A stretch of DNA of 64,000 nucleotides, from the NCBI GenBank assembly GCA_005223125.1, contig NJBH01000011.1, positions 43,570 to 107,569 of the forward strand. The letters run 5' to 3'. The stretch is from Promethearchaeota archaeon Loki_b32. Lineage in GTDB: Archaea > Asgardarchaeota > Lokiarchaeia > Sigyniarchaeales > SOKP01. The notes under the pieces are model-generated. The model was given only the letters and a program-made list of their open reading frames with translations. It was not told the origin of the DNA and searched no databases. Below, piece after piece: positions 28,435-29,604 of the stretch. Each line of letters begins with the position of its first letter. Position 1 is the stretch's first letter. A program made the position numbers and the translations under genes.

Positions 28435-29112
28435 TTAGATTTTTAGGGGTTTGCCACCTTCTTCTAATATTTCTACTTTTATGCTTGGATCCTTTTTCTC
28501 AAGTAATTCCCTGAATTTGCTGAGATCTTTGCCCCAATTTTGCCTTTATACATTATTTATGCATAAATTATGCATTGGAATTGCGATCTTAGGTTTCACA
28601 TCAACAACAGAATCAGTAGCTTCATCAAAATCCATAGTGTACGTTCCACCGCAAGGCATCATAGCAACAGTTATATTTCTACTTGCTAGATCTTTCATTT
28701 CAGGGATTCGTTCAGTATCTCCCGCATGATATACACTCTTGTCTTCTGCTGTTACTATTATACCTGCCCATTCATTTCTTTTGGGATGATTTGGCTTCTT
28801 AATATTGTATGCTGGAACTAACTCGATAGAAAGATCTTTATAGTCAAATGAATCCCCTAACTTCAACGGTGTTCCATCAAATTTTTGTAAACTGCTAGCA
28901 ATACTTTCAGGACCGATTACAACCGTATCATCCTTCATAAGATTTTGTATACTACTTGAATCAAAATGATCACTGTGTGAATGTGTTGAAACAATTATAT
29001 CTGCTTTCTCTTCTCCTTTTTTAATTTGGTAAGGATCAAGGTAAATAATTCTTCCACTTGGTGTTTTTATTTTAAAGGCAGCATGACCAAGCCATGTAAT
29101 TTCCATAGTCAT
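28435..29112 (-). CDS. MBL-fold metallo-hydrolase (UPF0173/UlaG-like), 215 aa after removing a 30-nt insert at 28539-28568
   Basis: WLGHA, THSHSDH, HAGDT, IPMH; the same frame resumes after the insert as WGKDLSKF...KPLKI* (TAA 28435-28437). Confidence 0.85.
28539..28568 (-). other. Candidate BHB-type mRNA intron (30 nt, contains in-frame TAA)
   Basis: Outer helix UUCCAA/UUGGGG, central UGCA/GGCA (3 of 4 paired), bulges UAA and AAA, inner helix UUUAUGCAU/AUGUAUAAA. Confidence 0.7.
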
Positions 29113-29241
29113 TTTTTATCACCACGTTAAATTATTTCAAAAAAGGATTTATATTTTATTATTATAACTAAATGCTTTATATTTATAACTTAGAATTGAT
29201 AAATTAAAGAGAAAACACGATGAGAAATTTTAAGTAAAAAT

Positions 29242-29604
29242 TTAATCTTCTTCTTCAAATTTCCATTCGGGACTTACGAGATAAATTTTTTTAGTTATTC
29301 CATGATTGTCTTCTTTGACTAAATCGAGTTCTTTAAATCTTTCGAAGAATAATTTATTTCTAAAATTAGGGATTTCATTAATAAAACGAGGTTTGGGTAT
29401 GTAATTCGGAGTATTTAGACTGGTTTTTTTAGATGTTATTTCATTTATTAGTTTTTTCTCTAAATTTTTATTATTCTTAAAGGTAGGGTGTTCAATTTTC
29501 AGGAAATTTGTATTTTTTAGACTAAGTTCCTTTATTGGTGTGGTAGATTTTAAAATTCGACAAGTGGGGCAATTAATCTCATCCAAACCGTGAATACACG
29601 TCAT
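29242..29604 (-). CDS. Hypothetical protein with N-terminal CxH...CxxC
   Basis: MTCIHGLDEINCPTCR. Confidence 0.65.
   Translation of the reverse strand: MTCIHGLDEINCPTCRILKSTTPIKELSLKNTNFLKIEHPTFKNNKNLEKKLINEITSKKTSLNTPNYIPKPRFINEIPNFRNKLFFERFKELDLVKEDNHGITKKIYLVSPEWKFEEED

Follow-up and report, generated by a model that had tools for sequence, protein, structure and literature searches.

A 30-nucleotide insert in a hydrolase gene of Asgard archaea is very probably an mRNA intron of the bulge-helix-bulge type

Splicing of mRNA outside the spliceosome is familiar from eukaryotic XBP1/HAC1, in which IRE1 cuts at stem-loops and a tRNA-ligase joins the exons in a stress-regulated manner; RtcB is the ligase family used in XBP1 splicing. 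In archaea, the cbf5 pre-mRNA of Desulfurococcales and Sulfolobales carries an intron of 16 to 44 nucleotides (nt), for which there is cDNA and in vitro support (PMC2738675). Intron predictions in other genes were mentioned in 2009 as unconfirmed (PMC2738675), and as of 2020 the archaeal mRNA cases comprised only cbf5 and an intron in a Haloferax 5′ untranslated region (UTR) (PMC7714728). Within the searchable literature, cbf5 is the only confirmed case of splicing in an archaeal coding sequence (PMC2738675, PMC7714728), and the same literature, which covers few subscription papers, yielded no report of mRNA introns in Asgard archaea. What has been described for Asgard archaea is a set of noncanonical tRNA introns, which are short bulge-helix-bulge (BHB) inserts gained repeatedly by an unknown route, together with a splicing endonuclease (EndA) of the (alpha-beta)2 form (bioRxiv 10.64898/2026.10.13.758758).

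The window analyzed here is a stretch of 64,000 nt from Promethearchaeota archaeon Loki_b32, an Asgard host as presumed from the start, since all of its named close relatives are Asgard archaea, mostly Promethearchaeota/Lokiarchaeota. At 28435-29112 on the reverse strand lies a gene for a metallo-beta-lactamase (MBL)-fold hydrolase (PF13483, E = 4e-28 in the Pfam scan), whose UPF0173-like product matches the solved family members TM_1162 (PDB 3x2z) and 3kl7 with E values of 1e-20 to 3e-25. The unspliced frame reads PMHN, 6 more codons and TAA, followed by RQNWG and 31 codons, one frame throughout. A sequence-only reading of this DNA had proposed that the segment at 28539-28568 is a BHB intron removed from the mRNA. 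Direct re-reading of the sequence confirmed its BHB layout, letters and coordinates, and reproduced the consequences of the 30-nt removal: the in-frame TAA is lost, the junction becomes PMHNWG, and the product is a 215-amino-acid (aa) hydrolase with a 33-aa exon 2 instead of 188 aa with the segment left in. We conclude that the insert is very probably an mRNA intron, and we infer from its sequence that EndA would cut it and RtcB would join the exons. The features of the locus are as follows.

29118-29123, reverse strand: Shine-Dalgarno-like GGTGAT upstream of the hydrolase start codon, as read from the sequence
28569-29112, reverse strand: exon 1, codons 1-181 and base 1 of Asn182, with the conserved PMH motif at its end
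28539-28568, reverse strand: candidate BHB-type intron of 30 nt with an in-frame stop
28435-28538, reverse strand: exon 2, bases 2-3 of Asn182, 33 codons (W183-I215) and the stop
28580-28575 paired with 28537-28532, reverse strand: outer (exon-exon) helix, 4 Watson-Crick and 2 G-U pairs
28571-28574, reverse strand: 5′ strand of the central helix, UGCA (exon)
28541-28544, reverse strand: 3′ strand of the central helix, GGCA (intron), 3 Watson-Crick pairs and an A.G mismatch
28568-28570, reverse strand: 5′ bulge UA^A, cut predicted at 28569/28568 from the BHB rule and an allele starting with G
28538-28540, reverse strand: 3′ bulge AA^A, cut predicted at 28539/28538 from the BHB rule and alleles ending with G
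28545-28567, reverse strand: inner hairpin, 9-bp stem (28559-28567 with 28545-28553, 1 G-U pair) and 5-nt loop
28546-28548, reverse strand: in-frame TAA within the intron, TAA or TAG in all 30-nt alleles seen
28523-28527 with 28585-28589, reverse strand: possible extension of the outer stem, in the minimum free energy (MFE) fold only
Predicted spliced exon-exon junction of the hydrolase mRNA: ATGCATAATTGGGG

A neighboring gene (29242-29604, reverse strand) encodes a 120-aa protein with no Pfam match and an N-terminal CxH...CxxC zinc-type motif, and it adjoins the hydrolase gene in 20 of the 21 loci checked.

As in XBP1/HAC1, removal of a short intron by an endonuclease and a ligase would change the protein that is made, but the endonuclease is a different one, and the hydrolase intron bears no sign of a common origin or of regulation. 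The likeness to the cbf5 intron is closer in kind: both are short, BHB-like and placed in coding sequence at a conserved active-site motif, both have an unconventional BHB with cuts (here predicted) between the second and third bulge bases, and in both a hetero-oligomeric EndA and loss in some lineages are found (PMC2738675). Nevertheless, this is not the cbf5 intron itself, which lies in a catalytic Asp codon; the host here is an MBL-fold hydrolase, and the two introns are of the same kind, not homologs. Haloferax volcanii HVO_1309 has a BHB intron in its 5′ UTR that is likewise an mRNA substrate of the tRNA splicing endonuclease, but this intron lies outside the coding sequence, restores no reading frame and is handled by a euryarchaeal enzyme (PMC7714728). 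The noncanonical Asgard tRNA introns share with the hydrolase insert the short length, the position at a BHB and the repeated gain, while the preprint describing them covers tRNA genes only and does not contain the word mRNA (bioRxiv 10.64898/2026.10.13.758758).

The insert region folds with a z score of −4.56, which was reached by 0 of 200 shuffles, and a central helix plus an inner stem at the junction were both present in only 8 of 200,000 shuffled inserts. All 16 genome alleles and all 8 metagenome alleles presented below accommodate a pair of 3-nt bulges, one on either strand. The MFE fold lacks the central helix, which has a pair probability of about 0.07, costs 2.7 kcal/mol relative to the MFE and, owing to its A.G mismatch, is expected to be largely open. 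A strict 4-bp central helix is not formed in the window allele (three pairs plus A.G, a state common to 13/15); four other alleles, L142 among them, have a perfect UGCA 3′ strand, and one has a C.A mismatch inside the helix. Thus, the window insert is a predicted relaxed BHB motif, not a canonical one. A relaxed motif keeps at least one flanking helix, and here the outer helix is 98.9% and the inner helix 96.3% paired, with covariation. Loose BHB shapes of this score number about 3,400 in this genome of 30% GC, and the same in reversed DNA; since they are so abundant by chance, the case rests on comparative data. Two further features of the fold were set aside: resemblance to an anticodon loop is uninformative, as every hBHBh′ motif leaves a 7-nt loop, and conservation of the stop codon as a regulatory sign is inseparable from the constraint on the stem. 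A group I, group II or homing intron was also rejected, given a length of only 30 nt, too little for a ribozyme core, and no endonuclease or reverse transcriptase of such introns in the open reading frame (ORF) list or in the Pfam scan of flanking genes.

The hydrolase gene occurs in 113 of 135 genomes of the family. We excised and read 66 gene copies, of which 15 carried a 30-nt insert, 1 carried a 29-nt insert, and 50 were intronless. The 30-nt inserts occupy the identical junction in 15 genomes, 13 from the genus of the window and 2 from a second one, and the 29-nt insert, which shifts the frame, occupies the same junction in a paralog of a third genus (the 16th genome) and has a perfect UGCA/UGCA central helix. 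This 29-nt allele (L040:1529-1593, a tandem paralog in G141, with the same allele in L086) has a weak inner stem, and the adjoining copy is intronless. Exactly this segment is missing from all 50 intronless copies, whose exon 2 is of equal length (31-33 aa) and which nearly all read PMHNW. The sequence-only reading had expected either intronless alleles or variable inserts keeping the BHB among orthologs, and the alignment contained both, the former being precise. A pattern search of metagenomes added eight contigs of the hydrolase gene with 29- or 30-nt inserts; the outer helix is paired and the central helix has 3 or 4 pairs in all eight, a combination absent from the 72 unrelated chance matches of the search. 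An apparent early end of the gene in G102 was dismissed, as it arises only from the end of the contig. One further observation concerns a second hydrolase copy in G081 (L208, at G081:C151:3928-3976), which lies near the G082 allele, has an intron starting with G and may be bin contamination.

The duplication of AATT at the borders, in a metagenome-assembled genome (MAG), had raised the alternative of an assembly error or a private insertion mutation. Since diverged versions of the insert recur across 15 genomes and 8 metagenome contigs, an insertion unique to this assembly is refuted, and we put the chance of such an error or mutation close to zero.

The inner stem covaries. Five of its nine pairs have changed on both sides, and the whole structure has six such pairs among 15 alleles. 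Across these alleles, 93% of cells pair, a level reached by 0 of 500 shuffles and compared with 24-58% in slid controls; relatedness may inflate the covariation signal, but the pair count is more robust. Full pairing of the outer helix was seen in 15/16 bearers versus 26/50 intronless copies (Fisher p = 0.003, with kin that are not independent), so that constraint on silent exon positions seems confined to copies with the insert. The position of the cuts can also be read from the alleles. In the window allele, the AATT repeat makes five 30-nt deletions equivalent, but the intron begins with G in one allele (L208) and ends with G in four (G071, G141, L097 and L142), and therefore the only deletion that fits all of them is the one produced by cuts after the second bulge base. 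The product of this rule matches the intronless alleles.

These data bear on two other ways in which an intact protein could arise. One is excision at the DNA level, by a miniature mobile element or by AATT slippage, such that the working gene would be an intronless copy in part of the population; it would account for the direct repeat at the borders and for intronless alleles in near-identical populations. However, five alleles retain the BHB although their AATT repeat is shortened or interrupted, and the G-U-tolerant covariation points to RNA. Furthermore, a covariance-model search detected no second copy of the intron in this genome, and its extra matches in 151 genomes were only L208, in the same gene, and a weak hairpin (L207, E = 0.002) showing no homology, so that no convincing copy was found outside the gene family. 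We consider DNA-level excision extremely unlikely. The other is translational recoding. Ribosomes hop in T4 gene 60 and at mitochondrial byps elements, and a ribosome might here hop from AAT (Asn) to the matching AAT 30 nt downstream, or else read through the stop. The insert of the window allele is indeed flanked by AAT codons with a hairpin between them, and a hop would yield the same protein. Yet the take-off codon is AGT in L208 and the landing codon is GAT in G071, G141, L097 and L142, whereas the BHB product stays AAT in all five variant alleles; the stop stands 7 codons past the take-off codon rather than directly after it; and the exon-exon pairing enriched in bearers is not something hopping requires. 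Read-through could not mend the 29-nt allele and would insert 10 variable residues beside a conserved His. Recoding of either form is thus very unlikely, and we return to an intron removed from the mRNA.

None of the 16 bearers has an internal stop or a frameshift within exon 2. The pN/pS of this exon was 0.21 between intron-bearing sisters (neutrality p = 5e-7) versus 0.14 in intronless pairs, both from pairwise comparisons in which the lineage separating two bearers may have lacked the intron for some of the time. By this measure, which may partly reflect intronless ancestors, exon 2 is under purifying selection in bearers. Exon 2 is predicted to form a helix (187-197) and short strands in an intronless ortholog modelled with high confidence (pLDDT 94.6), and the solved family members align with this exon. 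The PF13483 match, on the other hand, stops at residue 181, and the truncated 188-aa form retains all metal-binding motifs. The latter fits an insert that is retained or poorly removed, which would give a 188-aa protein or a dead allele spread by recombination and mended by exchange with intronless copies; the patchy distribution, the mosaic flanks (see below) and a hydrolase gene not known to be essential fit it as well. Such an account is hard to reconcile with an exon 2 that is intact and selected in bearers of 66 to 91% exon identity and that corresponds to a confidently modelled helix aligning with solved members, with a stem that covaries and a central-helix partner that is kept, or with core genes of the same genome that require the same kind of repair. 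We therefore judge retention improbable.

Contigs from RNA runs were also inspected. In runs X18 and X19 the alignment breaks off at 28566, after which the X18 contig goes on with letters like those of exon 2, i.e., in the joined form. However, the same study includes a run, X12, that looks like DNA (its depth stays flat across intergenic regions, and it has a 93-kb contig); its dominant contig is 33 nt shorter at the site and has variants in common with X18. The joined form in the RNA contigs is thus explained by an intronless DNA allele, and it was not counted as support for splicing; no spliced transcript from an intron-bearing allele was present in the RNA contigs examined, the joined form matching the intronless allele. 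The X12 population is identical to the window over 28940-29145, yet lacks the intron and differs in exon 2. Both states, with and without the intron, may therefore occur within a species or among its near kin.

The genome contains two EndA paralogs, alpha with the catalytic Tyr/His/Lys and beta without the His. The genes of this pair lie on C18 (around 184.5 kb) and on C2 (around 78.6 kb). The loop region of alpha (CSL/L1-like) aligns gaplessly to the Aeropyrum catalytic subunit (E = 2e-35), and RtcB is encoded as well (E = 1e-170). The Asgard EndA is an (alpha-beta)2 enzyme with an L1 loop that allows relaxed motifs (PMC5829648). By homology, the genome encodes an (alpha-beta)2 EndA with a predicted broad-specificity loop, plus an RtcB ligase. 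A 28-nt D-arm tRNA intron in this genome (C48, near 141.2 kb) has a clean BHB and the same anatomy as the hydrolase insert. D-arm inserts were seen in several of its tRNAs, and ARAGORN found only 15 tRNA genes in this 95%-complete genome, with 21 Rfam matches over the cutoff; many tRNA genes are probably hidden by introns.

Inserts of similar character interrupt other protein genes of the genome, and in each of the following cuts by the BHB rule restore a conserved motif: rpl11 (C57:12438, forward strand, 28 nt), gyrB (C56:37059, reverse, 53 nt), psmA (C4:22685, forward, 29 nt), a histone gene (C27:38088, reverse, 30 nt) and a paralog of EF-2 (C3:75804, forward, 30 nt). The L11 Pfam profile divides into 1-26 and 27-58 exactly at the rpl11 insert, and rpl11 and gyrB are the sole copies found in the genome. 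A cell in which these two genes are interrupted almost certainly splices mRNA, which raises the odds for the hydrolase intron. A ubiquitin-conjugating E2 gene has a 31-nt insert (C30:11080-11110, forward) in its FPxxYPF motif with a perfect CCAG/CTGG central helix, where the Pfam UQ_con profile divides into 17-55 and 51-139. The genome-wide BHB scan suggested by the sequence-only reading was productive in one respect: the E2 insert was the top match of the de novo search (BHB plus ORF joining) and was confirmed separately. The scans, however, gave no excess over shifted or reversed controls and therefore cannot count introns. Four de novo leads of 29-34 nt that join two long ORFs, from a scan at control level, lie on the reverse strand at C49:121163-121194, C67:62917, C67:65577 and C4:82105. 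A 21-nt "EF2" match at C3:70967 was discarded as an artefact of the motif test, and this test, which may miss such introns, recovered none of BHB type in the RNase HII gene. The hydrolase insert may well belong to a population of very short introns that EndA removes from ordinary protein genes in Loki-type Asgard archaea, with at least seven in this genome.

Bearers are scattered over the gene tree and often adjoin intronless sisters, and a single bearer clade was rejected (p-AU = 5e-44). Presence and absence are cleanly separated even between sequences about 96% alike (L097 versus G022). Around the site, out to about 15 codons, the third codon positions of bearers resemble each other more than expected from the remainder of the gene (permutation p = 0.0006 downstream and 0.005 upstream, with two control windows not significant). 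The likeness of G082 to G081, for instance, rises from less than 76% in exon 1 to 95% in early exon 2, whereas that of G064 to the intronless G065 falls from 96% to 80% between the same two segments. These patterns are most simply read as the intron having been gained or lost repeatedly through homologous recombination, with short tracts co-converted and the flanks travelling along; the mosaic flanks could alternatively come from selection for a longer outer stem or from MAG chimeras, and all genomes are MAGs, in which strain chimeras could add to the mosaic pattern. No likeness was seen between the hydrolase intron and the tRNA introns displayed. The hydrolase intron differs from that of cbf5, which belongs to another phylum and has one ancestral gain and a few losses: the former occurs patchily among close species, seems to carry its flanks along when it moves and is accompanied by others in its genome, at least seven in all. 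The cbf5 intron has experimental support, whereas the present one is known here from sequence alone.

Taken together, the sharing of the insert across species, the intronless alleles, the covarying stem, the selected exon 2 and the presence of the enzymes support the proposal of an mRNA intron. In the proposed mechanism, the pre-mRNA would fold into a relaxed hBHBh′ motif, the (alpha-beta)2 splicing endonuclease of the host would cut after base 2 of each bulge, and RtcB would ligate the exons to give the full 215-aa hydrolase, while mRNA left unspliced would yield the 188-aa product devoid of the C-terminal helix. With less confidence, we suggest that the intron may be a tolerated passenger, repeatedly gained or lost by DNA recombination with short flanks, rather than a dedicated switch.

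Gain, loss and splicing of archaeal mRNA introns are directly testable here, as close relatives have natural alleles with and without the intron, the substrate measures 49 nt and the enzyme is known. The expectation of the sequence-only reading that such genes are miscalled as truncated holds for Asgard proteomes, in which 188-aa products have been deposited as NCBI proteins (UCD01726.1, MFX1366627.1 and MFX1575009.1). Should introns of this sort prove common, mRNA introns with exons joined by RtcB would already have been tolerated in the lineage closest to eukaryotes.
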